A stretch of 62,132 bases of DNA, filler included. It is 8 parts of 8 records of this genome, joined end to end, with 100 filler letters (N's around TTAATTAATTAA, not from the genome) between each part and the next. Parts side by side here need not be neighbours in the genome. Positions count along the whole stretch, not along the records: positions 51,615 to 62,132 come from SRR7504441_5632; 7 more parts are not named here. One strand, written 5' to 3'. The translations under genes were made by a program, and so were the position numbers. A model generated the notes under the pieces. It was given only the letters and a program-made list of their open reading frames with translations. It had not been told where the DNA came from and made no database searches. Below are positions 1,192 through 62,132 of this stretch, piece after piece. How positions within the stretch are numbered: the stretch's first letter is position 1; each line of letters starts with the position of its first letter.

Positions 1192-1273
1192 GGCCTTCCG
1201 TTAATAATAATAATAAACAAATTCGCGGGCCAGAAGCGTTGCAGGCTCCTTGCGTGGGTACAGGCGGCGGCAG
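1192..1273. promoter_or_regulatory. Putative bidirectional promoter (82 nt) with an AT-rich (TAA)n tract
   Basis: Head-to-head ATGs at 1191(-) and 1274(+). TTAATAATAATAATAAACAAATT at 1201-1223 sits in otherwise GC-rich DNA. Confidence 0.55.
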
Positions 1274-2300: not shown

Positions 2301-2485
2301 TGTACTGCAACTTCTCTCGTATGTCTCGGGTAAAGTGATGTATAGGGAGCCCTTTATAGGTCTATTGATTAATTAAAAATGACACGCGATTGCACGCTTT
2401 CATGCAGCTCAAGTCGCTCAAGTCTTGCCAGTGCAATTGCTGCAATCATGTACTTGTTATGAAATCACAGTCCGTTTCGCTCAGC

Positions 2486-3436: not shown

Positions 3437-3536
3437 NNNNNNNNNNNNNNNNNNNNNNNNNNNNNNNNNNNNNNNNNNNNTTAATTAATTAANNNNNNNN
3501 NNNNNNNNNNNNNNNNNNNNNNNNNNNNNNNNNNNN
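3437..3536. other. Synthetic contig linker
   Basis: 44 N + TTAATTAATTAA (stops in all six frames) + 44 N. Confidence 0.98.
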
Positions 3537-3665
3537 GCCGATGTCGATCGTGCCGTCGCGGACCGGTGGACCAGCGGCTGCCGTTTGATCGGCGAAGTCG
3601 GGCCGGGCCTTGCGCGGGTGGAAGAGGGCGTTGACCAGCAGCGGGTGGTCCAGCAGCCCGTCCAT
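3537..3665 (-). CDS. N-terminal fragment of a probable alpha/beta hydrolase (3'-truncated by the linker)
   Basis: MDGLLDHPLLVNALFHPRKARPDFADQ... runs into the gap. LD-P---LFHPR resembles the N-terminus of a group of alpha/beta hydrolases. It is missing from the ORF track because it is short. Confidence 0.45.
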
Positions 3666-3820
3666 AGGCTGTGTGTGCCGGCTGCAGCACGCCTTTCAAG
3701 AATTGATCAATTCAAGGACCGCCGGCGCGGAGCTCAAGTGGTGGAGGAGGAGTCCACGGGAGCCCCAAGAATGGTGATAGGGTGATGAGATGAGCCGACC
3801 TTAGAGCGGGGCGGCGCGCG

Positions 3821-8054: not shown

Positions 8055-8154
8055 NNNNNNNNNNNNNNNNNNNNNNNNNNNNNNNNNNNNNNNNNNNNTT
8101 AATTAATTAANNNNNNNNNNNNNNNNNNNNNNNNNNNNNNNNNNNNNNNNNNNN
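8055..8154. other. Synthetic contig linker
   Basis: Same 100-nt N/TTAATTAATTAA/N spacer. Confidence 0.98.
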
Positions 8155-18966: not shown

Positions 18967-19066
18967 NNNNNNNNNNNNNNNNNNNNNNNNNNNNNNNNNN
19001 NNNNNNNNNNTTAATTAATTAANNNNNNNNNNNNNNNNNNNNNNNNNNNNNNNNNNNNNNNNNNNN
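18967..19066. other. Synthetic contig linker
   Basis: Same 100-nt spacer. Confidence 0.98.
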
Positions 19067-22000: not shown

Positions 22001-23497
22001 CTAAAGGAGGAGATCCAGCGAAAGACCACCGAGATTTACGAGGTGCGGCAGTATCTGACGCAAGTTCAGCAAGAACTGCACGACTTCCAGGTCAGGCAAG
22101 CTAACGAGGACTACGAAGGCCAGGTGAGCCAGCTGGTGCTCCAAGTGAGCGAAATGGGCCAATCGATGCGCGTGCTGCACGAGAAGTGCGCCGAGTATGA
22201 GACGAGGTCGGACCGGATGCGTGTGTCGAGAGACCGGAGCGAAAAGAGGCTCAACAAGACCCACAGTGAGATCAAGATGTACGTGGACCGGTGCACAGAG
22301 TTGCAGGCTGATCTGGGCAAGCTCAGAGAGCAGTTGGCCTTGAGCCCAGATGAACAAGTGACCCAGCTGCAGCAGCAGCTTGAAGCGACCGAGGCTAGGG
22401 CGAGCCGCGAGCAGGCCGAGAATGCCAAGCAGGTGAAGGATACTGAGAAGCGGGCAGCGCTGATGCAGCAGGCGAGAGATATGGCCGAGGTCGAACTCAA
22501 CCAACAGTTGGCTGCGACCGAGAAAGTGGAGGCCGCCGCAGAGGAGTACAGACAAGATATCGACAGGCTCAAGGAGATGCTGGCAGGCGGAGATCCCGGG
22601 GCGTGGAAGATCCATGAAGACATGGAAACTGCAATCCAACTCAAACTGGCGGCGGTCGAGGAATCGAGCCGGCTACGCGAAACACGCACCGTGGCAGAGG
22701 AGAGGGTGCATCAGTTGGAAGAGCAGTTGGAGGCGCTCGAGGGGAAGTACCAGGCGCTCGGGAAGGACCTCCGCCCAGAGATCCAGACGCTCCAGAAGCG
22801 GTGTGAGCTGGCTGATGCTGAAGCGAAGCGGCTGGAGGCCGAGCTGGCTGAGGCTGACTCACGGCTCGAGCCGTTGAGCGACAAGGTGGATGCGGTCGAG
22901 GAGGATAGGGCCGAGCTGCGTGAACAGGTGGCAGCGCTTCGGATGCAGCTGCGGGCGCAGGTGCTCGGGAGGGCGCTGCGCGTGCTCCCGGAGAGGGAGC
23001 GGCTCAAGCAGAGTGTGAGCTCCGACCTGCTGAGCACGCTGATGCTCGAGGACGAGCGCCAGTGGCGGATCGAGGCTGAAGAGTCCCAGTCCGGGCTGGC
23101 AGCTGAGCGCGAAGCTGCGCACAAGGCTGCGCTCGAACAGATGGCAAAGGTGGTCAAGGAGCAGTCTGAGCAGATGGCTGCTAAGGATGCCGAACTGACG
23201 GCACTGCATGAAGCGAGTAGCGCAGCTCATGCTCAGATAGCCAAGGCAGCTGAGGTGGCACCGGTACGAGGCGACACAGGGGGCAATGCAGTGGGCACGC
23301 CAGCTGCGGGGCCGGCTGGTGGGCAAGCGGGCGCTCGGCCACCGGAGACAGCCTCGGCTCGCGAATGGCAGCTCGAGAGGCGGCTGGAGGAGGCATACTC
23401 GCGAATTGCGCTACTGGAGGCCAAAATACAATCACAGCAACGCCAAGTGGTTAGCATGCAGTTTGCAGGCGTGGACCGACTCAGCCGGCGCCGCTAA
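19067..23497 (+). CDS. Long coiled-coil protein (>1,470 aa, probably 5'-truncated), cytoskeletal/centrosomal-type
   Basis: Single 4.4-kb ORF of E/L/R/A-rich heptads, two CxxC motifs, TAA stop at 23495-23497. Confidence 0.8.
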   Translation, partial: DRWRDRMCALVWSTKSQDASELQRHVSEILDWMAQAERGEAAAIGSVHELEAERESLLGSAIVMARDEHSAHSTETAALELQHDAIVKLEAELEQAREEVGRIWPELVASRERLASAEAGRQAAEAEAAESRGELGLREAALDGLRKDLDRLRSSGGAGHGALSDVLLAAETENCRLLERQLESAELELDKCREESSEQIELLQLELNQMAATANTDRSEARTQRQSDAVSRLLKEMVHEGRARAKAGLAEWRLKAELSGPRARPRDRLGGLTEEHHTLLSAVASHGARAVERLSQETANALAQVNTLEGAEASERLQAVEERFAGLAGCCGQLELWSGRVPDWAEQGPAERLELVEEGLAGLEGLTDQLWRWAWPTYDGRLAHMAQKRAAEKAELELSASLQELELKQQMNAREQDAASATELQEHLQAVTVQLSARGAAGLLAGWENTQRQLEICLSIWRQNLYMDILTVPECPHCVRAERRADMFRVKWLRDRERLDELSVRPPAVEDGCTCASCGEVPGRADTLALLLAEGDRVELELRDELDAAKDEYARQEEERAQLMAGCQRALEELDSDEFVQSLQFQLEKSREALDRSVLAAESCKQAADRMRDLRDAAEMREHLSWKDQVWLRAQLDAARQAEVGPVGGSDDSQMWMAEELARLREEADKLSHKVEELRLDRSRLEERALVVATLHRSEIEALEAKLEALGPGPEDLEASHDAMSAKCAGLEVKEVQLRGWLSAAEDRLARAMLESEYHHEESQAQREQADGLRSAVELEGDKQVAELSKELRRVSDSAGEMRRRLTEATARVEFMAGLKDEAEARSEQMARELDDQRSHVDELKQHIKQAQEALTEDQKNKHLVAELQEKDLNLDKLRRERLELRQSKVKKAMLLEEAESKLEALTREKIAQNEDVAALEQKVERLQSVVMSMDNPESTTKILNEQVEDQSAELAEMTKKLRKAKEQKKTAYDVRDKLKEEIQRKTTEIYEVRQYLTQVQQELHDFQVRQANEDYEGQVSQLVLQVSEMGQSMRVLHEKCAEYETRSDRMRVSRDRSEKRLNKTHSEIKMYVDRCTELQADLGKLREQLALSPDEQVTQLQQQLEATEARASREQAENAKQVKDTEKRAALMQQARDMAEVELNQQLAATEKVEAAAEEYRQDIDRLKEMLAGGDPGAWKIHEDMETAIQLKLAAVEESSRLRETRTVAEERVHQLEEQLEALEGKYQALGKDLRPEIQTLQKRCELADAEAKRLEAELAEADSRLEPLSDKVDAVEEDRAELREQVAALRMQLRAQVLGRALRVLPERERLKQSVSSDLLSTLMLEDERQWRIEAEESQSGLAAEREAAHKAALEQMAKVVKEQSEQMAAKDAELTALHEASSAAHAQIAKAAEVAPVRGDTGGNAVGTPAAGPAGGQAGARPPETASAREWQLERRLEEAYSRIALLEAKIQSQQRQVVSMQFAGVDRLSRRR

Positions 23498-25175: not shown

Positions 25176-26240
25176 TCACGGGCTGCTGTCATGCTTGCAC
25201 ATGTATCCATCGGCAATACTGTTGTATAGTTTCTGGTTCAGATGTGCATTGTGAAAGCACACCGCGCCACCGCCTCGAGAGCGCTGAGTAGTCATTCTGT
25301 TGATATCGCCCACGCAGACGCCCGACGAGCGCCCGAGCATGACCGCCCACTTGGCGTGGTCGGCCCCCTCTGACCATGTAATGTTCTTGCCATCCTGCCC
25401 GAGTGCAACCATTGTCTTGACATCGAGCACCTCATGCGCATGCTTCGGCCGACAATACGAGCCCACTTTGCTCCCGCGCAGCCACGACTCCACGTACATA
25501 TCCACCCGGTACTCGTTGGCGATGGCCGCATACAGGTCGTCTCCCCATGCCGCATTCTTAGCAAAGCTCGTGAATTCTCCAAGCTGTACCCGGAACAGCT
25601 GGTCCTCTCGCTCCCACTCTCCAGCGAGCAGCTTGGCAAGGTTCGGGAGTCCGAGGGCAGACCGATCAAAGGTGCTCCTGTACACGAACGGCCGGCTGTG
25701 CAGCAGCTGCTTGGCGGCCGTGTCCACTTGCTTCGCCGACATCTTGACGCAAAGGAAAGTCTGCCCATATTTCATCTCAGTATCGGGGAACTTCACAGAC
25801 CGCCGGCCCGGGAAGTGTGGGGTGCTGTGCACCAGCCAGAAGCCGGCCCCGCCTTTGGAGACCGCCAGCACCCCCTTGGCGTGCCCATACACTGCTGAAG
25901 GTCGGTCCCCGTCCGGCTGGTCCGAGTACATTAAGAAACCGCCTGTCCGGCTGCTGTTGAGCAGCCGAGCAGCGCTGTCGTCGTCGAGTGGGCTGACCAG
26001 CCGAGACTCGAGCTGGGCCAGCGTCCGGGTGAGCGGGGCCTTGTCGTCCTGCAGCCCGAGCCCGGAGTCGGCCAAGTAGCCCGGAGCGAGCCCGGAGCTG
26101 GGGCCGTGCCAGGCGGCGGCGAGCGAGCCCGGGAACTTGTAGCCGAACCACCAGTCAACTGATTTGCCCCGGCTGTCCAGGCACTCGAATCCGAGCCCCC
26201 CGGGCACCAGCAGCGCGCACAGCAGCGCCGATTTGAGCAT
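25176..26240 (-). CDS. DNASE2: Deoxyribonuclease II (PLD-superfamily acid DNase) with a signal peptide
   Basis: Signal peptide MLKSALLCALLVPGGLG. Family motifs CLDSRGKSVDWWFGYK, GHAKG, GFWLVHSTPHFP, YGQTFLC, DHAKWAV, VCVGDINRMTTQRSRGGGAVC. Confidence 0.95.
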   Translation of the reverse strand: MLKSALLCALLVPGGLGFECLDSRGKSVDWWFGYKFPGSLAAAWHGPSSGLAPGYLADSGLGLQDDKAPLTRTLAQLESRLVSPLDDDSAARLLNSSRTGGFLMYSDQPDGDRPSAVYGHAKGVLAVSKGGAGFWLVHSTPHFPGRRSVKFPDTEMKYGQTFLCVKMSAKQVDTAAKQLLHSRPFVYRSTFDRSALGLPNLAKLLAGEWEREDQLFRVQLGEFTSFAKNAAWGDDLYAAIANEYRVDMYVESWLRGSKVGSYCRPKHAHEVLDVKTMVALGQDGKNITWSEGADHAKWAVMLGRSSGVCVGDINRMTTQRSRGGGAVCFHNAHLNQKLYNSIADGYMCKHDSSP

Positions 26241-26328
26241 TGTGTCCGTGCGCCTCTCCAAAAGTTGGGGCCGTGACAAGTTTCTCCAGGGTGCCGTTAT
26301 AGATCTACCGGTAAGTATCAAGTACGTT

Positions 26329-28065
26329 ATGCAATCTGCGGCGACGTGCGGTATGGCAGGGCATCGGATGGCTTTGGCAGATGCTCGCCCGTGCGTCGGG
26401 ATTGAGATCGGCGCCCGGTTTATCCGGGGCACAATCTTAGCCGAAGGCGCCGCATCCCGGTGGCAGCGGCCCACAGCAGTCACCTTCACTGACATTGGGG
26501 CGTTTGCCGGGGATGCCTCGAAGACGGTCCTGTGGGAGCTGCCGCGGGTGCGCGCGCTGGTCTGCGGGACCTGCGACCCATCGTGCGCGCTCCGGGCGCT
26601 CAGGGACAATCCGCACATTCTCGAGCGGATCGTCCGCTCTGCTGGAATGGCTGGGCATACAGTGGCCTCTCCCCGGGGGGTGCTTCAGCGGGAGTGCGGA
26701 CCCGAACCAGCGGCGCTGGAGCTACGATACCGGATGGAGGATCAGGCGGTCACCGGGGTCGAGCTGTATCAGCTGCTCGTCCGGGAGCTGTACGATGCAC
26801 TTGGGATCGACCAGTGCGGGTGCGGGGCCGTGGTGTGCGTGCCTGTTGACAGCAACGACGAGTTCAGGCAGAAGACCAGAGATGCGCTTTACGCGGCCGG
26901 CTCACCAGACCACATCAACGTGCTTCGGGTCATCAACGAGCCGACCGCAGTCTGCATCAGCCTTGGATTGGCTGAGGATAACGATTTGCATGCGGTGAGT
27001 ATCGCTGAAGTCGGTCCGGATTACCTGAGGACGACGCTGATCTTGATCGAGGACGGGATCTTCGAGGTGGTGTACCACCAAAACCATCCGATGCCCTGCC
27101 TCTCCGATCATACTCAATCGACTGAAGAATGCCACCAAGCAGTGTGTGAGTTCATTAAAGCTGACTGCACTGCCAGCCTTACGGCGTACGTCATAGGCTC
27201 TATCCCATTCTACGACGGCACGATCGGCTCGCTGGCCAAGCTTGTGGTGTACTCTTCGCTCGGGCAGGACGTCACAGGGCTAGTCGAGATGCTTCAGGCA
27301 GAATCAGGGGCCCCACCAGATACGGTGCTGGCAGCCGACCCTTTTTGTGTGTCGCGCGGCGCCGCAATTCAGGCCGGCATTCTTTCCAATCCGGGCGACG
27401 ACGATCTCATGTGTGTGTTTGATGTGACCCCCCTGGCTCGAGGGGTCGAGACAGCAGATGGGCTGATGCACGTTGTTTCAGCGCGCAACACTACCATTCC
27501 TCAGCGGATGAAGCACATATTCACCACCCGAGAGGATATGCAGACCAGTGTCCGAATCCGTGTAGTTGAAGGCCAGCGGGCTTTGATGCAGGATGGGAGG
27601 GAGCTGGGGAGGTTGGATTTGCACTTGACCCACCCTTGCCCGCGGGGGGTCTCTCGAATAGAAATCGAGTTTGACACGGACGCCAACGGCACCCTCAACG
27701 TCAGGGCAAGCGAGTTGACTGGGTCAGGCTCGGCGACGGTTGCCATTGAGGAGCAACGGATGAGTCTAGACGAGCTGGTCCAGATGATACAGGACGGCGA
27801 GGAGCATTACGAAGCGGATCAGAATGCGATAGCCGCAATCGAGTTGGACCTGGAAGCCAAGAGAGACGCGTGGAGGCAGATGACAGGCTGCCCGAGCTCC
27901 CACTTGCGGCTGGAGGGCCTGCCAGAGCTTGCGCCAGCCCCAGTGCTTAGTATCACGTCAACTCAGGATCAACACAATTTCCCAGGAGTAGCGCCAGCGG
28001 CCCCGGTGCTTAGTATCACGTCAACTGAGGATCAACCACATTGGACGCTCAATGAGATAGATTGA
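26329..28065 (+). CDS. Divergent Hsp70-family protein with a degenerate nucleotide-binding domain and a conserved substrate-binding domain (start 26329, 26353 or 26368)
   Basis: NVLRVINEPTA, VSRGAAIQAGIL, DVTPLARGVET, RNTTIP, IFTTREDMQTSVRIRVVEGQR, PRGVSRIEIEFDTDANGTLNV. Confidence 0.85.
   Translation: MQSAATCGMAGHRMALADARPCVGIEIGARFIRGTILAEGAASRWQRPTAVTFTDIGAFAGDASKTVLWELPRVRALVCGTCDPSCALRALRDNPHILERIVRSAGMAGHTVASPRGVLQRECGPEPAALELRYRMEDQAVTGVELYQLLVRELYDALGIDQCGCGAVVCVPVDSNDEFRQKTRDALYAAGSPDHINVLRVINEPTAVCISLGLAEDNDLHAVSIAEVGPDYLRTTLILIEDGIFEVVYHQNHPMPCLSDHTQSTEECHQAVCEFIKADCTASLTAYVIGSIPFYDGTIGSLAKLVVYSSLGQDVTGLVEMLQAESGAPPDTVLAADPFCVSRGAAIQAGILSNPGDDDLMCVFDVTPLARGVETADGLMHVVSARNTTIPQRMKHIFTTREDMQTSVRIRVVEGQRALMQDGRELGRLDLHLTHPCPRGVSRIEIEFDTDANGTLNVRASELTGSGSATVAIEEQRMSLDELVQMIQDGEEHYEADQNAIAAIELDLEAKRDAWRQMTGCPSSHLRLEGLPELAPAPVLSITSTQDQHNFPGVAPAAPVLSITSTEDQPHWTLNEID
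27931..28036 (+). repeat. Imperfect two-copy repeat in the Hsp70 C-terminal tail (about 60-nt period)
   Basis: CCCC(A/G)GTGCTTAGTATCACGTCAACT(C/G)AGGATCAAC occurs twice and encodes APVLSITST(Q/E)DQ twice. Confidence 0.9.
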
Positions 28066-28969: not shown

Positions 28970-29069
28970 NNNNNNNNNNNNNNNNNNNNNNNNNNNNNNN
29001 NNNNNNNNNNNNNTTAATTAATTAANNNNNNNNNNNNNNNNNNNNNNNNNNNNNNNNNNNNNNNNNNNN
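28970..29069. other. Synthetic contig linker
   Basis: Same 100-nt spacer. Confidence 0.98.
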
Positions 29070-37410: not shown

Positions 37411-37510
37411 NNNNNNNNNNNNNNNNNNNNNNNNNNNNNNNNNNNNNNNNNNNNTTAATTAATTAANNNNNNNNNNNNNNNNNNNNNNNNNNNNNNNNNN
37501 NNNNNNNNNN
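37411..37510. other. Synthetic contig linker
   Basis: Same 100-nt spacer. Confidence 0.98.
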
Positions 37511-47707: not shown

Positions 47708-47807
47708 NNNNNNNNNNNNNNNNNNNNNNNNNNNNNNNNNNNNNNNNNNNNTTAATTAATTAANNNNNNNNNNNNNNNNNNNNNNNNNNNNNNNNNNNNN
47801 NNNNNNN
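47708..47807. other. Synthetic contig linker
   Basis: Same 100-nt spacer. Confidence 0.98.
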
Positions 47808-47997: not shown

Positions 47998-50900
47998 ATG
48001 CCAGGGGACGAGGCGGGCGGGCCTTCGACCTCTGACTGGGAGGCGTTCCAGACCGACCCGGCCGATGGCGGGCACTGGTGCTGACCCTCGCGCCGGGCCA
48101 CCGACAGTTGGCAGGTACTTTTACAATCAGCGGACCGGTGAGACGTTGTGGGCCGAGGAGCTGCAGGGGGGCGCATCCCGGCAGCGTGGTGCAACCCCGC
48201 CGCCGCCACATGGTGCTACCCGTCCCGCGCAGATCCCGACTGTCGGGTGCAGGGCCGTCGATGCAGGACTCGGTGCAGCGACTGGAGCGTGCTTTCCAGG
48301 CGGTGGCAGGCCAGCAGAGCCAGGAGTACGTGGCAGAGGTCCAGGAGCTACGCAGGCAGCTCGACGAGGCCACTGCGCGCGGGCCGCAGGCTGGGGCCGG
48401 CGCGTCTGGTGTCGCTGGCTTGCAACTGCGGCTGGACCAGCAGGAAAAGCTTTACCAGGAACAGATCGCAGAGCTCAACTCGTCGCTCAAACTCAGCCGT
48501 GAAACGCTGCTGAAGGGCAACGTGTCATTTCAATCGCTCGAGTCGACGCTAAAGTCGCTGGAACACCAGTGTGAAACACTCGAGGAGACACAGGTGACAC
48601 GCTGCGGCATGCACACAGCCTGTCGACAGTCACGTGTAGTCTATCGTACTGACGCTGTTCGGCTGCAGGTCCAAGCTCGGGAGCTGGCACAGATGGCTGC
48701 AGAAGACGAGTCTGGTCGACGCATTGAGCTGGAGTCGCGTGAATCGCTGCGGCTTGTTCTCGACGCTTTCATTGGTAGAAAAGAACCTTTTTCAGCAATG
48801 ACGGATGGCGGCGTCCTGAGCAGTGGCCTTCCTCCGATTGAGCGTGCTACTCACTATGTGTCGGACATCCCGTGCCAGTTTCCCTGGCCAAAGGCATGTG
48901 CAGATAATGCAGGTATTCACAGCATTGCTGCTGGAGCCAACTTTTTTGTTGCATTGAGTGCTTCAGGCCGGCTTTATCAATGGGGCTTCATTGCGAAGGT
49001 TGTAAGCCTTTGCCCGAGACCGCTGTCAATCGCAGAGTCAGTAAAGCACGTAGCCTGTGGGATGTATCATGCCGCGCTGGTGACCATGGAATATGAGGCT
49101 TTCTGCTGGGGTGCTTCATCATGTGGCCAGCTTGGGCTTGGAAACAGTGGTGATGTGCACGTGCCACGAAAGATTGAGGCCCTAGCGGAGAAAACGGTGC
49201 GCCACCCCTGCCAGATTATCCGGTTGATATGCTTAGCAGGTGAAGAGCATTACCTGTGGATGCTATCACACGCTGGCAAGCACACAGCGGCCAGGACAAG
49301 TGTATGCATGGGGTCTAGGAAACCATGGTCAGCTCGGGCAAGGCGATGATCGAACAAATAGGTTCATCCCAACCTTGGTCAAAGGTGTCGATGATGGTGA
49401 GCGCATTGTGGACCTTGCAGCTGGCCTGGGGCATTCGTTGGCTGTAACAGCATCTGGGAGTGTTTACACATGGGGCACGGGACTGCGCGGTGAGCTTGGG
49501 CTCGGAGATCAAGTACGATTCTCAGGTCGGCCACAGAAGCTTGGAGGGCAATTTAACAACTGCCTGGCAACATCAGCAGCGTGCGGACTGCACCACTCTG
49601 TCGTGGTCTCAGTCTTGGGTCTCTGGCAGAGGGAAGATGTTCGTTCACCAGCTCATGCACTGCATGGAACTAGTCTTATCCTGGTCCACGATCAGAGTGG
49701 CGCTCCTCTGCTCTTTTGTTTTGGTGGAGAGGGCAATCAAGGTGTTCATGGATGCTTTCAAGTGATGAAAGTTCAGGAAGATGGATCTCCGCTTCAATGG
49801 ATTGAACCACTTTATCATGGTTCGGCAGCCACTCCACGTGTATACCACAGTGCCTCTCTGGTCCAGGACTCCATATTCATCTGGGGCGGGCTGGATACCA
49901 ACCATGAACCATGTGATGCTGGCATCAGTATGTTTAATGTTGGCACAATGACATGGTCTACGCCAGCTGTCAAAGGAGAGCTCCCGGCAGCTCGAGCAAT
50001 GCACAGTGCGACTGCAATGGGTACCTCGCTTGTAGTATTTGGTGGCGCTTCAATGGCAACAGGACGCCCTGTTGGTGATTTGGCCATTCTTGACACCTCA
50101 AAAGGGGAACCGTTCCAGTGGCAGGTGATCCCCCACCAACCTTACAGTTGGCCCCGGCCGCGCGAAAGGCACAGTGCAGATGCCGTGCAAGACAAGCTAC
50201 TGATATTTGGTGGGTTTGATGGCGAGGTTTCCCTGAAAGACGTGCATGTACTGGATGCGTCTCTGCAGTGGATAGAGCTTGACACTTCTGGAAATGACCT
50301 GATGGAGGCCCGGTCCGATCATTGCACTGCAGTACTTGGCAAGGGAACCAATTTGGCAGTGTTTGGTGGGCATGATGGTACTCATTATCTGAACGATTTT
50401 TGGATCCTTGATGTTGACAAGAGGCAATGGTCTGCTCCCAAAGTGGGTATTCACTCTGTACCAGTGCCTCGCGCCTGTGCATCGTTGTCAGCATGGCCAG
50501 ACGAGAAGGGAGAGACGCATTTCTTTCTTGTGGGAGGATTTGATGGCCATGAGCATCTTGGTGACACGTGGAGATTGTCACTGGACCACCGAGAAGTGCT
50601 TACTTGGGGTGACAACACAAATGGGCAGCTCGGGTGCGCCATTAGTCAACACAAAGGACCTGATGCCGTCGTGTGGGCACCCAAAACAGTTGGAGCTCTG
50701 GGCGATGAAAGCATCCGCTCAATTGCCTGCGGGTTGCATCACACCACGGCTTTGACGGGTAATGGGAAGGTTCTAGCATGGGGCTCTCAAAAGTTTGGGC
50801 AAGTTGGCAAGGATATGAATGTTTTTGGTGCAAGTGCTCCTCAAACAATTCAAGCTGCTCCTGTTGATGTGACACCTGTCGGGCAGGTTGTGCGTCACAT

Positions 50901-51514
50901 CTCCTGCGGAGCTTACAGTACTTTTGCAATAGATGCGTATGAGACCATGTGGTCATGGGGATGGAATGGGCCAGTGGCACATGGCCGTGGAAGTGGTCAA
51001 AATGCCAGGGCAGTTAAAGCTGTAATCTCCACTCTCCAGCGTGTGGCCAGAGGAATGCTAGGGCGCCGAAAGGTCAAGACTGTGAGCGGTATGGGGCGAG
51101 ACGAGAAACGGAACTGGGCTGCTCGACTTATACAGCAAAGGTACCGCCTGAACAAGGTTTACATAGAGCGAAATGTCGATACGCGAGACAAACTGATAGC
51201 CACAGTGGAAGCTGCTGTATTACAGGCACAAAGAGAGGGCAAGCCTGTGCCCCCAGAGATCCGACAAATAGAGGAAAGCAGAGAAAAGAAAAAGAGATGG
51301 CTGGCAGAGAGAGACCGACTAGCCGCAAACGAAGGTAGATCTACCGGGAAGGATCTTGACATGAACGTGTCCTTGCCAACACAGGTGAATGCACATGATC
51401 AGCAGGAAATGGCGAAGTGGCAGGATATCAAGCAGGCGGCAGAGCGAGAGAGAAGTTTAGCAGAGAAGCTGAAAGCCGAGGCTAATGCCCAGACTGCAAA
51501 GGCGCAGGAGATGA
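47998..51514 (+). CDS. WW - coiled coil - RCC1 propeller (with inserted Kelch propeller) - IQ protein, 3'-truncated
   Basis: GT-AG introns 48078-48114, 48213-48252, 48594-48668, 49197-49239. WW domain DWEAFQTD...WYFYNQRTGETLW; 7 RCC1 blades; 6 Kelch repeats; IQ-like LQRVARGMLGRR and LIQQRYR. Confidence 0.88.
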
Positions 51515-51614
51515 NNNNNNNNNNNNNNNNNNNNNNNNNNNNNNNNNNNNNNNNNNNNTTAATTAATTAANNNNNNNNNNNNNNNNNNNNNNNNNNNNNN
51601 NNNNNNNNNNNNNN
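51515..51614. other. Synthetic contig linker
   Basis: Same 100-nt spacer. Confidence 0.98.
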
Positions 51615-54600
51615 CGCTAGCCCCGATGCCTCCTGCTTCATCTCGTTTTCGACCTTTGCAAGTGTGTCTTTCTTCTCGGCAGCGCGATTGCTGGCATCCC
51701 CGATCCTCTGTTGGAGCCCCTTTTCCCTGCGACGCTCATCCATCTTGCTCTGCTGTGCCTCAGCTGCTTGTCTATTAGCTAGTCGCAACGCTCCAACTGT
51801 ATGCTCAACCGCTTCCTCTGTGGTCTGTGCTCCTTGCTTTGCTAGCCCAACGGAGTTGGCGGCTGCTGACTGCTGCTTGCGCGATTCTATAAGAGCAGCT
51901 TCCGCCTGCTTGAATGCTTTGTTTGCCAATTGCTGCCTCTGCTGCAGCATACGCTTCTCTTGGCTCCATCCTGCTTCAAAAAACCCCAACTCTTGCTTGG
52001 CAGCCGCTGCAGCCTGCTTCTGCCTATCTAACCGGCCCTCGAGCGTCTCCCTCTCAGCTTCAGCCATTTTGACTGCCTGAGCATCAGCCTCTGCTTTGAC
52101 GCTCTTGGCTGACAACTGGGTCATGATCTGATCAGTCTGCTTCTTTAGCTGATCTAGCCTAGATTGATCAACTCCCCGCTGCTGGTCCAGTTGAGTCCAC
52201 TGTTGCCGGGCGTCCACCCAGCCCTCCCTGTCCTGCTGTTCCTGCTGCTTTGCTTCTTGCAACTCCTGTTTGTCCTCTTCGACACCTTCTTCCAGCATTC
52301 CAAGCTGAACCTTTGCCGCTGCCACCTTGCTATCTATTGACTCCTGCTGTATCGTTCCCTGGGCTGTCACTCGCTTCAATTCGAAACTTGCACCTACCCG
52401 GGAGGAGGACAACTCCTCTGCGGACTCGATGTCGTCAGCCTGCTTCTTACGCGCATTGCTGGCCCTAGCTTGTTCGTTGGTTATCTCCTGGACCAACTGT
52501 TTGTGCGCTTCTTGAGCCCGGCTAAACTTGCTCGAAGTCACGTTGGCCGCCTCTTGAGTCACATGCCGCTGCTTGATTGCATTGTCTACTTCTTTCTTCG
52601 CGAGTGCAACTACTCTTTGGGCTGCCTGCTCTCCTCGGACCTTGGCCTGCTCGTGTATTTTTGCATCATGCAAGATGGACTCGCTCTCGCGAACAAACCT
52701 ACTCTTCTCCCTTACATCAGACTCCTTGCTCAAAACTCTGCTTTGGGCCTCATACGAAGTCTGCGCAGCAGCAGAGGCCACCGTCAAGGCTTTGTCATGA
52801 TCACTAATGGCATCCTTCAGGGCCTTCTGTGCCCGCTCATTCCGCATGCCAGCCTCTTTCTCAGCGCGGACAGCCTCCTTGATCTGGGCCTTGAGCGCCA
52901 GCTCTTTTTCCACCATCATCGCGCTGGCTTTTGCAGTGCTATTGGCTACGGAAGCCTGCACTTGAGAGGCGCTCTGAGCAACTGACACTGCGTGTTTAAT
53001 GTCAGCAGCCCTGCGCTTGGCCTGGTCGAGCTGACTCTCTGCAAACCATTGACTCCGCCGTGCTGCTTGGGCCATCACCTCTGCAGCCAGGCGTCTGCTC
53101 TCTGTCTGCTGCACTGCTTCCCAGCCTGTGACGACCTGTTCCTTCATTGCATTCGCATCGCCTGTCACATTGGCAGCAGCAGCCTTAGCGACTTCGAGCT
53201 TGTCTTTTGCTGCTACCAGATCAGCTGTATGCTGATCCAGCACGGCTTGAGTCTCGTTTTGCCAGCCTGTTGCCTGACGCGCTTCCTCCACTGCATGTTG
53301 TTGTGCTTGCTCAGCAGCAGAATCACGTTGCTTGTATCGTTTCAGCTGCTCACGTTCCTGTACCACGCGACTGCGCGCTTGAGTGTACATCTTGTGTGCA
53401 TCCTCCAAATCCTCCTCAGCCTTTTTGTTCCCGGCGAGGACTGCTACAGTCTTTTCAGCCTGCGTCTTGTCGCGCTTTTTCAGCTTTCTAGCTTCCTTCT
53501 TAGCTTCACGGGTCTGCTTCTTAGAGATTTTGTACTGCTTTCTGGCACCAGCATACGCCTGCTTGGCATTCTTGAGCCCAGTTTCACTCTCACTCAGCTC
53601 CTGCTGGGCAGTTTGCTGCTTTTGCTTGAAAGCTGCCGCCTGTTGGCCAGCCAGTTCAGCTTTCAGCTGCGCGTGATCATCTGCTCGCTGGGCATCCATC
53701 CACTTGGCTCGCGCCCTCTCCGCCTCAGCAGCAGCCTGACGGGCTCGATTCACCTGCAACACGTTCAGAAAATGCTCAGGGCTCGGAGTGCGCACCTGGA
53801 TGTTTGAAGCCTTGCTTGCAGCCGGCAGTTCGATGTTGACTAGCTCCTCCAGTTCGTCTTGCATCGCTTTGAGTGGAGCAAGGTCTACACTGGGTTCTTC
53901 ATCCAGCAATACCAACGCACTGGGCTCCTTGTCATGCCCAGGATCGTCACGCCCCTCGCTCTTTGCGCACCGCTCCTTAGCTTTGCGCACTTGAGCATTA
54001 CTGATATCTTCTGCCTCCTCCTGCCGAGTAGTGGCCTCCTTTTTCACAAGCACTTCCAGTCTATTACTATCGCGCTCAGAGTGCTCTGCAATGCCCTTTT
54101 CCATCTGCTTCAACTGAGCGTCCATGGCCTTGCTGTCTGCTGATGCTGATGAACTGATTATCTTAGCCTGAGCTGCAGTAACTCGCTTCATTGCTCTCGT
54201 GCTACACACATCTGTCAGCATGCACTCTTACTATGGCAAGGCAAGCACCTGGCTTGGACAACTTCAGTAGCCCGCTCAGCACTATGCTTCATCATTTCCA
54301 ATTCTTCAGGCTCGGATCGAATCTGCCAGCCACCCATGAGACCCGCCCTACACCAGCTGCACACCTGTGCTCGAACCCTTGCAACCTTTCTCATTGCTTG
54401 CTGCAGCATCTGCTCGGTCTTTTCGTGAGTTGTCTGGTTGATCTTGGCGGCAGCCATAGCAGCAGTATGCTGCATCTCGTCGGCAATTCGCTTGCTATCT
54501 GCATCTTGCTGATCAAGCACAAGCTTAGCTGCAGTCTGATGGTCGACTGCTTGTTCCCTTAACTGATCAGTCCTCTCCTGCCTCTTGGCTGTCTTCATGC

Positions 54601-57600
54601 CCATAAAGTCTGCAAACTCCGAAGCCTTGTCCGTTATGCTCGCTGCATGCTCCTTGGCTTTCTCAATCTGATTCTTAGCAGCTGTTCTAGTCCGCTTCAG
54701 CTCCTTGTTTTGGTGTTTTTCAGCATCTTCGGTTTCTTCATGCGCATTCCTTTTTGCGTTTGCCACCAGTATTGATGCTGCACTCTCTGCGTCTGTAACC
54801 ACTTTATTTGCCGTCTGTTGGGCCTCATCCTCCCTCTTGATGATGCTGGCTCGCATTGTTTTCATCTCATGCGCATATTGCCTATGCAAAGCACCATTTC
54901 TGTCTCTGTCATCCATATACTGGGCTTCATCTGCCTTGGCTTCCTTCCTTGTTTCTGCATAGCTAGTCGCCTGTTGTGACTTGGCAGCACCGACAGTGGT
55001 CTTGGCCGTTTCCTTGGCCCAAATGCTGAAGTTCGAGGTAATGCCAGCCTTCATTGCTGCACCAGCTGTTTTGAGTCTCCCGAACAAGTGCTGTGCTTTG
55101 CTTCGGAGCTTTAGTTCAGCATCAAATGCAGCATTGCTAGCCTCCAGAGCGTCAGCTGCCCTTTTCTCTGCAGCCTGCTTAGCAGTGATTGCCAGGGCCA
55201 GCGCAGCTGCTGTGTCATCAGCCCGATCCTGCGCTTCTGTTGCAGCTTGGCTAGCTGTCTCCACCTGTGGGTTGAGTGCTGCAAGCCGCTGCTTAGCAAT
55301 TTTGGTCCGAGTTTTTGCATTCCGCCACAGTTCAGCTGCTGTCCTTGCGCCACTTCTTGCCTGCCTGAGCTCACCCCGTAGATCTGCCGCTTTGCTGACA
55401 GCTTGGAGTTTGGAATGTGCGGTCTTGGTTGCTTGTTCAATGTCTGCCTCCACAGCCTTTGCCTGCAGCTGTGCTGTTTCCTGCACAGCTTGCAAGTGCT
55501 CTTTTTGCCTGTCTACTATTGCATTTGACCGGCCCACTCTCTCTTGCAACCCATCCACGCGATGCTTCCACAGAGCAGCATGCTCAGCTGCAGTAGTTTG
55601 GGTCTGACCGGCTGTCTTGCTCTGCAGCTCAGCCAGACTGGCCTGCAGCCTGGCCAGGCGCAGCGCCTGCTGCGCTCCTTGAATCGACTGTTGATATCCA
55701 GCCAACCTAACTTTCTGCCTGTCGCTTTCCCTAGCTAGTTCAATGGCTTGCGCCTCCTGCTGCTTAAGCCTTGCTAGGGCTTGTTTATTGTCGTCCCAGG
55801 CGACATCTACGCGGCTGCTAGTATTCTGGCTCGCTGCAGTTGCTTTGCCAGCCACTGTCTCCCTTGAAGCAACCCTCTGCTTCCACCTACCACACGACAA
55901 CTCAGACCCAGCTTAGGTGTAAGTTAGTCACTTATCCAGCTTTTGTCGCAGTGGACCAATGGCCTGTTGGCTGTGCTTCAACATGCGTTCCTCCATCTCT
56001 GCTGTTGCGTTTGCGCGATCCACATGAGCCTGTACCAACACCTCCTGCGCCCTTGCCCTACTCTGGGTGCTTTGGGCCTCGATCTGACCCTCTCGGGTAT
56101 TTTGTGCAGATACAACCGACCTTTCGACTCGCTTGCGCTCGTCTTCGAGGCCAACTCGTGCCTGTCCCGACACAGTAAAGCACTAGGCAATTCACTACAG
56201 GTGTATAGGCACCTGCTTTCTCTTCTGAGCTGCACTGCCCTCAGCTTGCTCGGCCACCTTGAGCAGGTGCTTACTTTGCTTTTCGGCTGTCACAGCGGCT
56301 AAGATTACTTTCTGCTTCTGTGCTGTGCTTTCTTCGGCGCTATCCAGCTGCTTATTCTGTCTATCCAAGTCAGCAACCGCAGCCTTCTCTGCAGTCTCTG
56401 CATGTACCAGCTGCTGCTCTGCAAACTCCTTGAGATGATTGGCCTGGACTGAACGACTCTGGAAGTCACGCACTCGACGACCCTTGCCTGGAAGCTTGGC
56501 TGTGAGCCGCTGTGACAACAGATCAAGGCGTGTAGCCTGTCGTGCGGAGGCAGACGCCTGCTTGGCGGCGGCTGCTGCCTTTACTGCTACCTTGCGTTCC
56601 CTTTTATGCGCATCTGCAGCGGCAGCATCTGACTGGCGCTTCACAGAGTTTTGTTGGTGCTCAGCTTCTCTTAGTGCTTTTTGTGCTGCTTGTTGCTCTG
56701 TGTACCGCTGGTTTTCTCTCTTAGTAGCTTCGCCAAGCCTAACCTCGCTCAGCTCCTTCTTACGCTCTGCCTTCCATAATTCGACTTGCTTGGTCAATGC
56801 AGCTGACCGGGCTTGTTGCCATTTGTCTTGCGCTGTGCCCAGCTTATCTTCAACAGACTTGAGCGATGCCTTCAACTTTTTCACGACAGCATGGCTGCCC
56901 TGGGCTGCCTTTTGCTTGGCCTCCAGCATTTCAGAATGCTCGAGCTGATGTTGCTTCCGTGCAAGGTCCACAGCATTCACAGCTTTGGTTACTGACCTCG
57001 TTAGCTTCTTTGTTGTGGTGTTGGCTTTATCAGACTCTTGCGCCATGACCTCATTGGCATCTATGACCGCCTTCTTTGTTGCGGCTTCGGCGCTGGCACT
57101 TGTCTTGGCCTTGACAGCAGCTGTCTCAGCAACCGCCTCTGCCTTCTGCACCTGTGCATTGGCTTTGTCTTGGTCGCTCTTGGCCTTGTCTTGGGCCATG
57201 AGTGCAGCTTGCTTTGCTTGCTCTACCTGACGCACTGACTCCTCCGCCCGAGCCAAGCTTGCTTTTGTCTGGTTCAGTTGGGCTTTGAGTTCATGCGCTT
57301 TTGACCTGTGTTGCTTAAGCAGCGCCACTGCCTCTGATACAACATCCACACTCTGATCACGGGCTGCCTTTGCTCGCGCATAATCTGCCTTAACACGGCC
57401 AAACTCCAAGCTCACTGCATCAGCCTCAGCCTTGTGCTTGGCCTGATTCTCGAGGGCCAGCTCCACCTTGCTTTCTGCGCTCTGCTGTGCTGGAATGGCA
57501 TCCCGCTCCAAATGTTCAACTGCCTGCTTACTCGCCATCCTCGCCTTGGTCACAACCGCAGCCGCCTTGGCTTCGCGCCGCTTTGCTTCACCTATGCGCG

Positions 57601-60600
57601 TCTCTGACTGATCGAGTGTTCTGATTGTTTTTGCAAGCGCCCTCTTAGTATGATGAAGATCAGCCGCTTCTTTTTCAGTAGTGACTGTGCGCTCTGCAAC
57701 CACAGCTGAAGCGTGATCATACGCGTCCTTTGAAATCTTGGCCGCAGCGCTCGCTAGCTGCCAGGCGCTGTGTGCCGCTGTGGCCTCAGGATCATTACGG
57801 AGCAGCTTACCCACAACAATCACTTCACACAGGGAGAGCTGCTGGGCTGAACTGCCCACTGTGACAAATCGTCCCACCTTGCCCGAGCAGTCCACGGTCT
57901 GGGTACCTCCTTCATTGATTGAGACCTCCGGCCCACAGATCCGGCCAGTTTCAGGTTTATCATCCATCCCCATGCGTACTTGAATTGCCTCTGCCAGACC
58001 TGGTGCATCACCGCGCGCTATCAACTCTACAGAATTGACTCTGGCGAGATCTTCCAGGTGCACTTGCCACCAGGGTCGCTGTTCGACCTCAGTAGCAAAG
58101 CATGAGCCCAAAGAGAGCACATTTTGTGCACTTCCATCCACGCCTCGGGTGGCCACGGCGTTACCCAGGGTAGAAGACTGCCGAGCAGGTCTCCCAAGTG
58201 CTAGAGTCTGCTGCATACTGCCTTGTCGGATGTAGGCGCCATTCACTCGAACTTCACACAGTTTGAGCTGCACCTCCTGGGAGCTGCCACTGTTTACAGA
58301 CACGTACCGGCCTTGCCGCGCTGGGCTGCAAGTTACTTCTGACAGCTTGCCAGGCATCAACTCCAGCTGTTGATCTGCACAGCGCGGATTACGGAGACCG
58401 CCTTTGGAGCCAAAGGGACCCACGTGCACAGCAATACTGATCGTCTTCAAGGGGTTGTCGCCACCTGGCACTATTTCGACCGCCTGAATTATTGCAGGCT
58501 TGCCCAAGTCTACCATCCACCAGGCTGCAACGACTGGCGGGGACGCAAAACAGGTTGACAGGTCCCCATCATTGGCTAGTGGAGCGTGGCCACTGAGAGC
58601 AGTGCTCTGTCGTGCAAGGCCGATATTCTGTATGGCAGTGCTTGGGGACTGCTGACCATAGACTTGTACCTGAAGCACACACCATTCAATCATGAGTGCT
58701 AAAGGAACATGGCATGGCGCTACCTCGCAGAGTCGGAGTGTAGCTTCAGGGGCCTCGCTGGCGACTGTGACATAACGCCCGTCAATCGCAGGTACGCACA
58801 TGGCCACTGCAGATCCACCGGCATCTATGAGCAGCCCAGGCCCACACAGTTGACCCTTGCCCTCACTACTGCTTCCCACATACACTTTGAGTGCCTCGGT
58901 GGAGCCGGCAGCCTGGCCACTGCTGCTCACCTCCACAGAAGACACTCTCACACTGCTCTGCAAGTCAACACGGAGCCATGGAGCTGGCTGCTGACGACTG
59001 GCAGCGCATGTAGTCCTTTTGCCATCAACTGCAAGGCTGCCTGCGTGGTCACCAGTAGTGCTGGATAGCTGGACAGGTCGACTGCGAGAGACCGATTCCA
59101 CCCTCGAGGATGAGGGTCCTGGGATACCGTTCACCTTGACTTCACAAAATCCAAGCTGCTGAGCACTCCCTCGGCGCACTAGTGTTACAAACCGGCCTTG
59201 CACTGGTGGATCACACACCACAGTGCCAAGTCCTCCCTGTGGTATGTCGATTGCAGTGTTACACAATTGATTTTGTATTCCACCAGCTTCAGGAGAGCTG
59301 CCCACTCGAACCTCTACTGAAGCACCCTGCTCAGAACAGCAATCAGCACGTCCGGTGATCTGCACTTGAATCACAGTGGCATCACTCAGCAGGTCCACAC
59401 GCCACCACGGGTCGTCTTCTTCTTGTGTCACTGTGCATGAGCCCTGGCTGTAGTCTGTGTCCAAACTGCCATCAACAGCCGCAGCAGGATCGCTGCCATG
59501 ATCCATTGAACTCTGGGTGGCTGGCTTGTGCGCACCCAGATTTGCAAGAGTTGGCTTGAGACCAGTCTTCTTGATATAGACAGTTGAGACCATCCCTGGT
59601 GGTGCCTTGCCATATGGACAGTTGTCAGCATTGGCCAGTGAATTAGCCAGTGGATCCCAGTCACTTCCGAGAGTCTCTGTGTTGCACCCCTCTGGAGTGA
59701 GCAGTCCAAGCCTGCATTCCGCCTCATGTTCCGCATAGGAGAATCCTTTGCAGAGCTTGTCGCCTAAGCAGGCTGCTTCACACTTCCTCCGGCTGATCCC
59801 ACGCTGTTTCCAGTGGCCCTTGCCCCAGTGGTACATCAGGCTCCCATCCTGTGGCAGAAAAAGAATCTGCGAGGATGCCTTGACTGTACCAGCCTTGCCA
59901 GGGTAGTACTTGATGTACAATTCAGCGCTGGTGCCATCCTTAACCTCACCATATGGACACTGGTGCGGCACAGCCAGCGGATTATCTGCTGCCCATGCTG
60001 GCCCCAGAGCTGCACCATTGCATTGAGCCTGCGTAATCAAGCCTAGCTGACACTCATCTTGTCCGCTGAGGCTGTACCCATGGCAGTTGGCATCCTTCTC
60101 ACACATCGCTTGGCAAACTGGCTGGGTGGCCGTCACCTGGAATCCCTTTGGACCCCAGTTGTACTTTTTCTGTCCTGGGATTTTCTCAAATAGTGCTCCC
60201 TTTGACGCATCTTGTGGCTTGGGATTTGCCAGGACTGTAAAATCGTCTGGACGGCGCTCTGGAAGCGATGCTTGAAAGCTTTGGAACACCTCAGCTGCCG
60301 ACAGTGTTCTGTCGTACACTCGAAGGCTGAAAATGTCCCCACGCCAACCTGCAACTCCCCGGCCCTTGCCAACAAGCATGCGGCTGGCACCAGGCAGCAA
60401 TGCTGGGCCCGTTGGCTCACCCCATGTCTCACTAAGCTGAGCTGCTCCATTTATGTAGATAGTAGTACCCTTGTTGTAGTGCTTTCGCCAGTTCTCGACT
60501 GCTACACACACGTGATAGACAGCACCTGCGGTGAGCATATCCTTTGCCTGCCGGCCGAAACCTCGGCAGTCCCCAGTTGCCACCTTGCCACTTCTCAGGA

Positions 60601-62132
60601 ACACCTCAAGGCACTCTCCTTGTGTGCGAGCTCCCTGGCTAAGCAGGACACTAGATTCGGCAATTACTGTCTGTCGAAGCACTGCACACACTGTCATTTC
60701 ACCGCTGCTGGCCACTGCTTTAGATGGCGCACTTCCTTCAAATGCCTGCTTGCCTGTGAAGTGATAATGTGGTTCTCTGCCTTCCACAAAAGTCGGCCTT
60801 AACCCAGCTGTGCCAGTGAGATTATTCCTGTTCGGACTCAGATCTTGCCAGCTTGTTGAAGCCCCACTATAGCTTGTCCTCGCTTCCACACCCAATACAA
60901 GCCCTTCAGCTACAGGCCCAGGCTTGCCTCGAGCTTGCAGTGGCAGGCGGGGTCGAAGGTTGAGCGAGGCAGCGTAGTTGTTTGCAACCTCCGTCTCAGA
61001 CAGAGCCCTGCTGTAGACTTGGATTGCTGATATTGTGCCAGACCATCCAGTGTCTTGCCTGTCAGTTGCCCACATGCCCACTCTGAATGGTGCAGCTGGC
61101 ACTGGACCAGTGGGCGCTTCGCTCCATTGAGCTGTGCTGCGGAGCTCACCATTCACATAGAGCTTGGTGGTAGTCTGATGTGACTCCCACTTTTCGATCA
61201 CATCACACACATGCATCTCTGTGTGGAGCTGATGAGCCCGGGACTCACGTCGACCTGCAGGGGACCACTGATCTGTAGCGAACCGTCTGTTGTTAGAGAT
61301 AAAACCCATGCACTTGCCAGCCTCACCCGCATTCTGGCTTATGATTGTCGCGTACGGGGCAGGTGCTGACTCAGATACTCTGGCACAGATGGTAGTAGCA
61401 AACTGGTTACCACTCAGGGGGGAGGCCCATGTAGAGGTAAAGTACTGGCGTGACCCAAAAACAAAGCGAGGCCCAAGCTTTTGGGAGGTTTCAAACCTCG
61501 GCTTGTGCTCTGTGGACGCAATCATGTGGTTCTGTGAAGGACTCAAGTCAAACCATGTATTGCCGTGCCCAGGATAGCTAGCAGCTTCCCTTGTATCAAG
61601 GTCCAAAATTAGCCCATCGCTTTCGAGCTGCCCATTGGTGCTTGGGAGCGCGCTTCCGGAATGCATCTGAATAATCCTTGCAGTGGTGCTATTATCATAC
61701 GAGTTCAGAACTGCGGGCTGCCCCTCACACGCCTTGTGTGACCATGGCCCCAGGGTCGAGTCCAGCTCATCAGGGCATTGCGCTGCTCGGCTTATCAAGC
61801 AGAAAGGTGGCTCGCCATCCTGGTCAACGGTGCACTGCCCTCCTGGCCCCCATCCCTTGCAGCGACACCCACTGAGAGATTCTGCCTCAGGGCGATCAAA
61901 CTCAAAGCTACCATATCGAGCCTCGAGCTTAGTCTCCTTGGCTTTTACTCGATTGAGCTCTTTGAGCGCTTTGATGATCATGGTCGTGTCCCCAGTGATC
62001 TTGGCAGCCAGCAGATGCTCTTGTGCTGTTTGCTCAGACTGCGATACTTCCAGCACCTTGGATGTAATCTGAACTTCTGACTCCTGAGTGGGCAGCAGCA
62101 CGCTTTCTGCAGCCGCTTCTGCCTGGCGCTCC
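51615..62132 (-). CDS. Giant multidomain protein (>3,400 aa, open at both ends): Cys-rich module, 2 LamG/ConA-like, 2 PAN/apple-like and 4 F5/8-type-C (F-type lectin) domains, then about 2,000 aa of coiled coil
   Basis: Four ORFs are joined by GT-AG introns 56212-56162, 55931-55887 and 54248-54202, plus in-frame introns 58723-58670, 54364-54323 and 53795-53754. Motifs SYPGHGNTWFDLS...IQVYSRALS; CQAMCEKDANCHGYS; KPATQSS...AVDG...PWWRVDL...GFCEVKV. Confidence 0.88.

Follow-up and report, generated by a model that had tools for sequence, protein, structure and literature searches.

A giant modular protein joining lectin-fold domains to a hinged coiled-coil stalk in an uncultured marine microbial eukaryote

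Introduction

Does a single gene of a microbial eukaryote join a block of extracellular-type binding modules to a coiled coil of some 2,000 residues, and what would such a protein be? The question is raised by contig 8 (record SRR7504441_5632), which occupies positions 51615-62132 (10,518 nt) of the stretch of DNA analysed here (62,132 nt; the window) and is in its entirety the gene under study. The window consists of eight separate contigs joined by artificial linkers of the form N44-TTAATTAATTAA-N44, so the order of the contigs within it is biologically meaningless. An earlier interpretation, made from the letters of the window (the sequence-only reading), had described the product of contig 8 as a giant lectin-tipped coiled-coil fibre and a candidate prey-capture or adhesion filament. 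We report here that the contig 8 protein combines known domains in a new architecture, in which a nine-module block (the head) and a hinged coiled-coil stalk belong to the same polypeptide and the length of the first stalk rod is conserved almost to the residue.

Results

Contig 8 carries three long collinear open reading frames (ORFs) on the minus strand (56195-62131, 54215-55900 and 51615-54221), and once five short GT..AG introns are removed from that strand, a single stop-free reading frame of 3,426 aa results (Table 1). For comparison with contig 8, three RNA runs (X2, X4 and X8) and one DNA run (X1) were used, and parts of the contig that these runs left uncovered carried no weight as evidence. 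RNA contigs at least 99% identical to contig 8 made up 19 of 19 in X2, 5 of 5 in X4 and 4 of 5 in X8 (a polyA library), these data coming from two studies, and three of the introns are skipped in metatranscriptome contigs. All this marks it as a spliced, expressed eukaryotic gene, and the sequence-only reading had indeed called it intron-containing and eukaryotic. The other two introns are inferred and lie outside RNA contig coverage; the 18 residues that one of them (58670-58723) would add are missing at the same spot in the orthologous protein P0001. Sequence near-identical to part of contig 8 is present in 14 of the 21 runs listed (marine and seawater metagenomes and metatranscriptomes), eight of the 14 being recorded as RNA and the set spanning 11 studies. 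The source of the gene is an uncultured marine microbial eukaryote.

The open frame runs without interruption, within one exon, from the fourth F-type lectin domain (FTLD4) of the head through 530 aa of stalk, and an RNA contig covering 57487-57895 spans the head-stalk boundary at 57806. Together with five orthologue proteins in which both parts also occur (P0001, P0154, P0163, P0167 and P0157), this places head and stalk on one transcript, in line with the sequence-only reading, for which separate transcripts would have been fatal.

A homologue search retrieved P0001 (2,538 aa), which is 53% identical across the head and likewise has a long stalk after it, and whose 90% cluster includes P0154 (5,872 aa), P0167 (3,879 aa) and P0163 (2,974 aa). 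As the latter three all stop at the same residues, the C-terminus of the orthologue is real. Among the eight contigs, P0154 matches contig 8 alone, with residues 2331-5724 collinear, and residues 1-3426 of the contig 8 fragment correspond to ~58% of a ~5,900-aa protein (orthologue residues ~2306-5724). By this collinearity, contig 8 is short of ~2,300 aa at the 5′ end of the gene and of ~148 aa at the 3′ end; consistent with the 3′ shortfall, DNA and RNA contigs extend 469-586 nt beyond position 51615. Because P0154 has ~1,930 aa of modules and a 455-aa linker upstream of the nine-module block (residues 2385-3738), the block is internal and the description of the protein as lectin-tipped was wrong.

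The upstream array of P0154 includes Golvesin_C-like modules (4.8e-17, measured in P0168). Between residues ~900 and ~1900, about five such repeats, each closing with ...SKLKL(I/V)C, alternate with beta-rich modules of no assigned family. A search of PDB gave no sequence relatives for P0168 or for the Golvesin_C-like repeats.

The fragment itself opens with an 85-aa lead-in that is the end of the ~455-aa A/Q/E-rich linker seen in the orthologue. The sequence-only reading had expected more helix upstream; these 85 aa are indeed predicted to be helical, but they lack a heptad signal (z = -0.6) and belong to a linker. AlphaFold2 prediction of the N-terminal 398 aa from the single sequence gave a mean pLDDT (predicted local distance difference test) of 36 and was unusable for a fold search.

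Within the head, one six-cysteine (6-Cys) module, two LamG, two PAN and four F-type lectin domains (FTLDs) follow one another, all bearing cysteines; this is the module list of the sequence-only reading, whose coordinates agree with ours to ~35 nt. The 6-Cys module has no significant Pfam match, and a PDB sequence search of the 6-Cys, LamG and PAN part returned no match. Laminin_G_3, at 67.6 bits, lies well above its cutoff of 27.6, and its two copies are 29% identical to each other (E 9e-32). PAN2 reached 27.6 bits, above the cutoff of 21.4, and PAN1 only 16 bits (below cutoff), with 37% identity between the two (E 2e-16); the PAN2 score, the PAN1-PAN2 identity and the pattern of six cysteines together assign both modules, as predicted domains, to the PAN/Apple family. 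Among the solved structures of PDB, the FTLD block is closest to FBP32 (3cqo) and eel agglutinin (1k12), with E values of 5e-46 and 2e-23, respectively, and the four F5/8-C modules are, by predicted fold, true F-type lectin domains. FTLD1 retains an adjacent Cys-Cys pair that aligns with the pair of solved fish lectins, and a calcium-type VDG motif occurs in three of the four FTLDs (AVDGS, AVDGK and GVDGS), with NDGD in FTLD3 (versus h2DGx).

Two unrelated HMMER matches, P0091 and P0081, have a lengthy charged region, helical or repetitive, together with canonical FTLDs toward the C-terminus that bear the sugar-binding motif; mounting such domains on an extended spacer may be a design that recurs. 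As for annotation, the intron at 58670-58723 is of a kind by which ORF-based gene callers would silently add 18 false residues to an FTLD, and further stop-free in-frame introns are possible in those long exons where RNA contigs gave no coverage.

Directly after FTLD4, and in the same exon, the stalk begins and extends for 2,003 aa (19.5% Ala, 10.3% Gln, 9.8% Lys and 9.7% Glu). Windowed hydrophobic periodicity at 3.5 residues, scored against shuffles, was pronounced in the stalk (z = 12.2; head, z = 1.2). Folded modulo 7 with no fitting, a 580-aa stretch of the stalk holds one unbroken register with exactly two hydrophobic phases, three apart, the flanking phases not being hydrophobic. One of these phases is made up of 40% L/I/V/M/F plus 24% Ala, the other of 41% Ala plus 19% large hydrophobics, and the orthologue rod has the same two-phase pattern across 450 aa. 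With heptad position a largely L/V/I/A and position d largely Ala, the stalk is predicted to be a canonical coiled coil with a two-position core and an alanine-rich d.

The ~2,000-aa coiled-coil stalk of the sequence-only reading is thus upheld in its length, heptad pattern and A/Q/K-rich composition, but it is not continuous, as a hinge splits it into two rods (Table 1; lengths at an alpha-helical rise of 0.1485 nm per residue). The stalk has 13 prolines in 2,003 aa, seven of them within residues 2651-2705, i.e. in the hinge region. Its sole cysteine, residue 2642, is located at the end of rod 1 within the KERCAK motif and is conserved in the orthologue. AlphaFold2 prediction of 211 aa around the hinge gave two helices with pLDDT >90 and, between them, ~60 low-confidence residues plus one short helix. 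Self-BLAST detected no internal repeats in the stalk. An SMC-like antiparallel hairpin of the two rods is less likely because the arms are unequal in P0154 (1,216 versus ~840-870 aa).

The most unusual feature of the protein is the near-constant length of rod 1 despite sequence drift, a case of length-constrained coiled-coil evolution. Rod 1 measures 1,214 aa in contig 8 versus 1,216 aa in the orthologue, at a rod identity of only ~19% (head modules, 44-76% between the lineages), and the distance from the end of FTLD4 to KERCAK is 1,223 residues versus 1,225 in P0001. When rod 1 was split into eight 150-aa pieces and each was slid from -30 to +30 residues along the orthologue, the best offsets of all eight were 0, 0, +1, +2, +2, +2, +2 and +2, with identities of 16-24% versus a background of 9-11%. 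Rod 1 has tolerated only about two single-residue indels across its 1,214 residues. That the offsets stay between 0 and +2 at ~19% identity argues for selection acting on rod length or register and not on rod sequence.

A second giant coiled-coil gene lies on contig 3 (8155-18966, plus strand), encoding an A/Q/E/K-rich coiled coil of 3,400 aa or more that is very like the contig 8 stalk in composition. The sequence-only reading had noted this resemblance and raised the idea that both contigs are parts of one gene or family. The likeness in composition holds, but homology was not detectable: BLASTP of the contig 3 protein against the stalk gave no match at E<=1e-3 (with SEG) and none at E<=10 unfiltered, a shuffled control in the same comparison producing one match at E 5.8. 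No end overlaps of at least 15 nt were found among the eight contigs, and at the place where contig 3 would need to join, the orthologue carries globular modules. Contig 3 thus represents a separate gene, with no family evidence found. Its ORF breaks are short GTGC.../GTAT...AG introns of the same style as those of the contig 8 gene, and this shared style fits a single source organism.

With regard to cellular location, all 43 head cysteines (6, 3, 4, 6, 6, 6, 4, 4 and 4 per module) align with a cysteine in P0154, and the whole 2,003-aa stalk contains a single one. Such a pattern has the look of disulfide-bonded extracellular or lumenal modules. Owing to this complete conservation, passage through the secretory pathway would be favoured despite the N-terminus of the orthologue (see below).

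No characterised or named relative of the contig 8 protein was found in Pfam, PDB, a search of 5.8 billion proteins or an exhaustive HMMER search, and hence none of the orthology to a characterised protein that would have overturned the sequence-only reading. HMMER with the first 1,200 ORF residues gave 6,939 matches, of which the best 150 were almost all tandem-FTLD proteins; among the 150 matches listed, P0106 alone aligned with the N-terminal side. There was no longer homologue among 2,627 candidates and no shorter homologue for residues 1-260 among 2,421 candidates. The 27 loci returned by a metagenome scan all matched weakly (35-95 residues at 36-38% identity) and were not used further. 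A literature search of limited coverage did not find the same architecture, and we make no claim that it is absent from print.

Table 1 Features of the contig 8 gene, of its orthologue P0154 and of the window (window positions unless residues are indicated)
Feature	Position	Strand	Remarks
Partial gene	51615-62132	-	Both ends open; 3,426-aa spliced fragment, no stop codon
Six exons	58724-62132, 56213-58669, 55932-56161, 54365-55886, 54249-54322, 51615-54201	-	
Intron	54202-54248	-	47 nt, shifts frame; skipped by X2 RNA contig (74 nt on the shorter side), retained by X1 DNA contig
Intron	54323-54364	-	42 nt; skipped by X2 RNA contig (only 22 nt on the shorter side), retained by X1 DNA contig
Intron	56162-56212	-	51 nt; skipped by X2 RNA contig (127 nt on the shorter side); three in-frame stops inside
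Inferred intron	55887-55931	-	45 nt; contains a stop; removal leaves frame open; outside RNA contig coverage
Inferred intron	58670-58723	-	54 nt, in frame, stop-free, within FTLD2; outside RNA contig coverage
Helical lead-in	61877-62131	-	Fragment residues 1-85; AlphaFold2 helices 16-46 and 49-73, pLDDT 61-74
6-Cys module	61727-61870	-	76% identical to P0154, best-conserved part; 6/6 Cys kept
Laminin_G_3 (ConA-like), two copies	60938-61639 and 60254-60919	-	Pfam 1.8e-18, 2 stretches
PAN1 (PAN/Apple)	59888-60199	-	6 Cys, all conserved
PAN2 (PAN/Apple)	59534-59878	-	6 Cys, all conserved
FTLD1-4 (F5/8-C, tandem)	57806-59527	-	Pfam PF22633 4e-49, 4 stretches
Rod 1	53979-57805	-	1,214 aa, ~180 nm if fully helical
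Hinge	53757-53978	-	~60-75 aa; KERCAK...DP..VLLDE motif shared with orthologue
Rod 2	51615-53756	-	714 aa, ~106 nm; truncated by contig end, orthologue runs ~148 aa further
P0154, globular array	residues ~1-1930		Cys-bearing; PAN (2e-9), Laminin_G_3 (6e-17), repeated Golvesin_C-like modules
P0154, linker	residues 1930-2385		455 aa, A/Q/E-rich, no heptad signal (z = -0.3)
P0154, nine-module block	residues 2385-3738		
P0154, rod 1	residues 3739-4954		1,216 aa
P0154, hinge	residues ~4955-5029		
P0154, rod 2	residues 5030-5872		
Contig 3 ORFs	8684-16804, 16792-18207, 18220-18711	+	Open at the contig's 3′ end; no Pfam family
Seven linkers	3437-3536, 8055-8154, 18967-19066, 28970-29069, 37411-37510, 47708-47807, 51515-51614		

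Discussion

On balance, and with some reservation, we consider the contig 8 protein to be probably a secreted adhesive or matrix fibre, long-reaching and multivalent, on or around the cell. The protein would enter the secretory pathway, as suggested by its extracellular module types and the conservation of all head cysteines; its rods would associate in parallel pairs or bundles, with Cys2642 at the hinge perhaps acting as a staple, and the resulting fibre of ~0.3 micrometre would present several copies of two large ligand-binding module arrays at one end. The conserved rod length may then set a fixed spacing or register, and the ligands of the arrays need not be fucosylated glycans. A bolder form of the proposal, which we think rather unlikely, would have these proteins constitute an undescribed family of secreted ~5,900-aa fibres with a calibrated ~0.3-micrometre rod, a disulfide-stapled hinge and two arrays of about twenty carbohydrate-binding-type modules: a counterpart, in uncultured marine protists, of laminin-like filaments or of capture filaments, and possibly the shaft or thread of an uncharacterised extrusive or surface apparatus.

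Several results weigh against a secreted adhesive fibre. At the annotated start of P0154, the best signal-peptide candidate is a weak Ala-rich segment (AAAAVWTL, residues 18-25), and there is no clear signal peptide. The sequence-only reading had proposed looking for an anchor in the complete gene, and on the orthologue gene neither kind was present: no transmembrane segment in P0154 or the fragment (maximum 19-residue hydropathy 1.39 and 1.53, respectively), and no glycosylphosphatidylinositol (GPI)-type tail, the P0154 C-terminus ...QVDLPAPTL not being hydrophobic. Domain types and cysteine conservation are thereby the sole grounds on which secretion is predicted. Long-range charge periodicity of the myosin kind, which underlies staggered packing of filaments, did not exceed shuffles in any of four rod segments, and in the searches made the family was seen in only two species-level lineages.

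A last point of this kind concerns the ligand. The motif diagnostic of sugar (fucose) binding in F-type lectins is given as HX24RXDX4(R/K), departures from which may signal altered specificity or lost sugar binding (PMC12221842). None of the four contig 8 FTLDs and none of the four in the orthologue carries this motif, even with the spacing relaxed to 22-26, and two unrelated control FTLD proteins from the same searches, P0002 and P0003, do carry it. Because the motif is missing, binding of glycans by these domains is doubtful. The glycan-binding head of the sequence-only reading is therefore no more than plausible, given the types of module present.

The sequence-only reading had gone further and suggested an extrusome apparatus of a predatory flagellate. 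Under such a scheme, the protein would be extrusome or mucocyst-like cargo, kept compact in storage and turned into a capture filament on firing or release. A strict rod length at low identity would suit in-register packing, the secretory-type modules and conserved cysteines are compatible with it, and a protein with neither a transmembrane segment nor an anchor-like tail could be soluble secreted or lumenal cargo. However, the analysis gave no link between the gene and known families of extrusome proteins, nor between it and predation. The stalk has no periodic charge pattern, no signal or pro-peptide is visible in the orthologue, literature searches on coiled coils or lectins of extrusomes, trichocysts and mastigonemes gave nothing similar, and no named homologue turned up in the sequence searches. 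The families seen on the other contigs are all widespread ones (DNase II, Hsp70-like, RCC1-Kelch and Pex24-like). Neither prey capture nor a predatory flagellate as the source has found supporting evidence, and we regard cargo of this type as unlikely.

Long coiled coils of eukaryotes are mostly intracellular, and the protein could alternatively be an intracellular scaffold or tether, comparable to golgins or to those of the cytoskeleton or rootlets, its lectin-fold modules being incidental. The orthologue's want of a clear signal peptide or transmembrane segment would fit, as would the presence on contigs 3 and 4 of giant coiled-coil genes without extracellular modules. Against this, PAN, LamG and FTLD modules with 43 of 43 cysteines conserved, mostly in even numbers, point to disulfides, which would be unexpected in the cytosol, and homology between the stalk and the contig 3 protein was not detectable; we hold an intracellular scaffold to be quite improbable. 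That head and stalk come from different genes or organisms, through misassembly or misbinning, is hardly credible: the window does consist of short metagenome-type contigs artificially joined, and no run contig covers the whole of contig 8, but FTLD4 passes into the stalk in one exon and frame, an RNA contig crosses the boundary, and independent orthologue assemblies have the same order.

How does a secreted adhesive or matrix fibre of this build compare with known systems? The protein resembles laminin, bee silk and stalked adhesins in design only and fails the defining features of each. With F-type lectins (FBP32/MsFTL1 and AAA) it shares the FTLD fold signature, a tandem array as in FBP32 and the Cys-Cys pair of FTLD1; the known ones are small soluble serum lectins, whereas the contig 8 FTLDs lack the sugar motif and sit within a ~5,900-aa protein with a 2,100-aa coil. 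Laminin combines LamG domains with a long coiled-coil rod and has a cysteine in a position to staple the rod. The contig 8 protein also pairs LamG-type domains with a long rod and a possible stapling cysteine, but its LamG modules are N-terminal to the rod, the rod is about three times as long as that of laminin, and Pfam detected no laminin N-terminal (LN) or EGF-type domains in the contig 8 protein or the orthologue. The likeness to laminin is one of analogy as judged from domain order and design, and not of membership.

Bacterial fibrillar adhesins, trimeric autotransporters and phage tail fibres hold binding modules on a long stalk away from the base, and the sequence-only reading had drawn its analogy from this stalk-plus-binding-module logic. 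The contig 8 gene differs in being eukaryotic and spliced, and its product in having an alpha-helical stalk with no Ig-like or beta-helical repeats, no anchor (in the orthologue) and a binding block that is not at the tip. Among protists, alveolate LCCL/CCp proteins and PAN-bearing microneme proteins are strings of discoidin/F5-8C, LamG/pentraxin and PAN modules, as is the contig 8 head with its discoidin/F5-8C, LamG and PAN-type modules. We know of no alveolate LCCL/CCp or microneme protein with a kilo-residue coiled coil, Pfam detected no LCCL domain in the contig 8 protein, and no sequence orthology to these multi-adhesive proteins was found.

The honeybee silk proteins AmelF1-4 are secreted coiled coils with Ala-rich core positions, rods of ~210 aa forming antiparallel heterotetramers and Ala also at positions e and g (PMC12284834). 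The contig 8 protein has a comparable Ala-rich core (41% Ala at d), its secretion being predicted only. The silks differ in having no binding modules, and the contig 8 rod differs in having just two hydrophobic heptad phases.

Multi-lectin proteins are mostly compact or beaded, and coiled coils of great length mostly belong inside the cell. A protein of ~3,700 aa of extracellular-type modules plus a 2,100-aa coil would be a distinct single-cell route to a long multivalent fibre, the more striking for a rod of constant length and drifting sequence. Its transcripts occur in natural marine communities sampled by two studies or more, so that whatever structure the protein builds is in use in the ocean, and the protein offers a handle, by antibody, fluorescence in situ hybridization (FISH) probe or recombinant head, for finding both the organism and the structure. 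Even an ordinary role, in surface glycocalyx or matrix, would leave the protein as a new domain architecture and as a clear instance of a coiled coil evolving under a length constraint.

Other features of the window

On contig 8, none of five plus-strand ORFs has a Pfam match above cutoff, and we regard these ORFs as artefacts, antisense to a biased coding strand; no tandem DNA repeats and no Rfam family were found. Elsewhere in the window, a 5′-open ORF of 1,476 aa (19067-23494, plus strand) encodes an E/L/R-rich coiled coil with cysteines and no Pfam match. A DNase II family ORF (25179-26684, minus strand; 5.6e-71) shares ~540 nt with an Hsp70-like ORF on the opposite strand (26143-28062, plus strand; 3.1e-51), whose match is confined to the C-terminal half of the profile; this is an overlap at the level of ORFs before splicing analysis. 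Finally, positions 48036-51514 (plus strand) encode a protein with RCC1 repeats (1.4e-39) and a Kelch propeller (5e-63), followed by a basic, coiled-coil-like tail that is truncated by the contig end.

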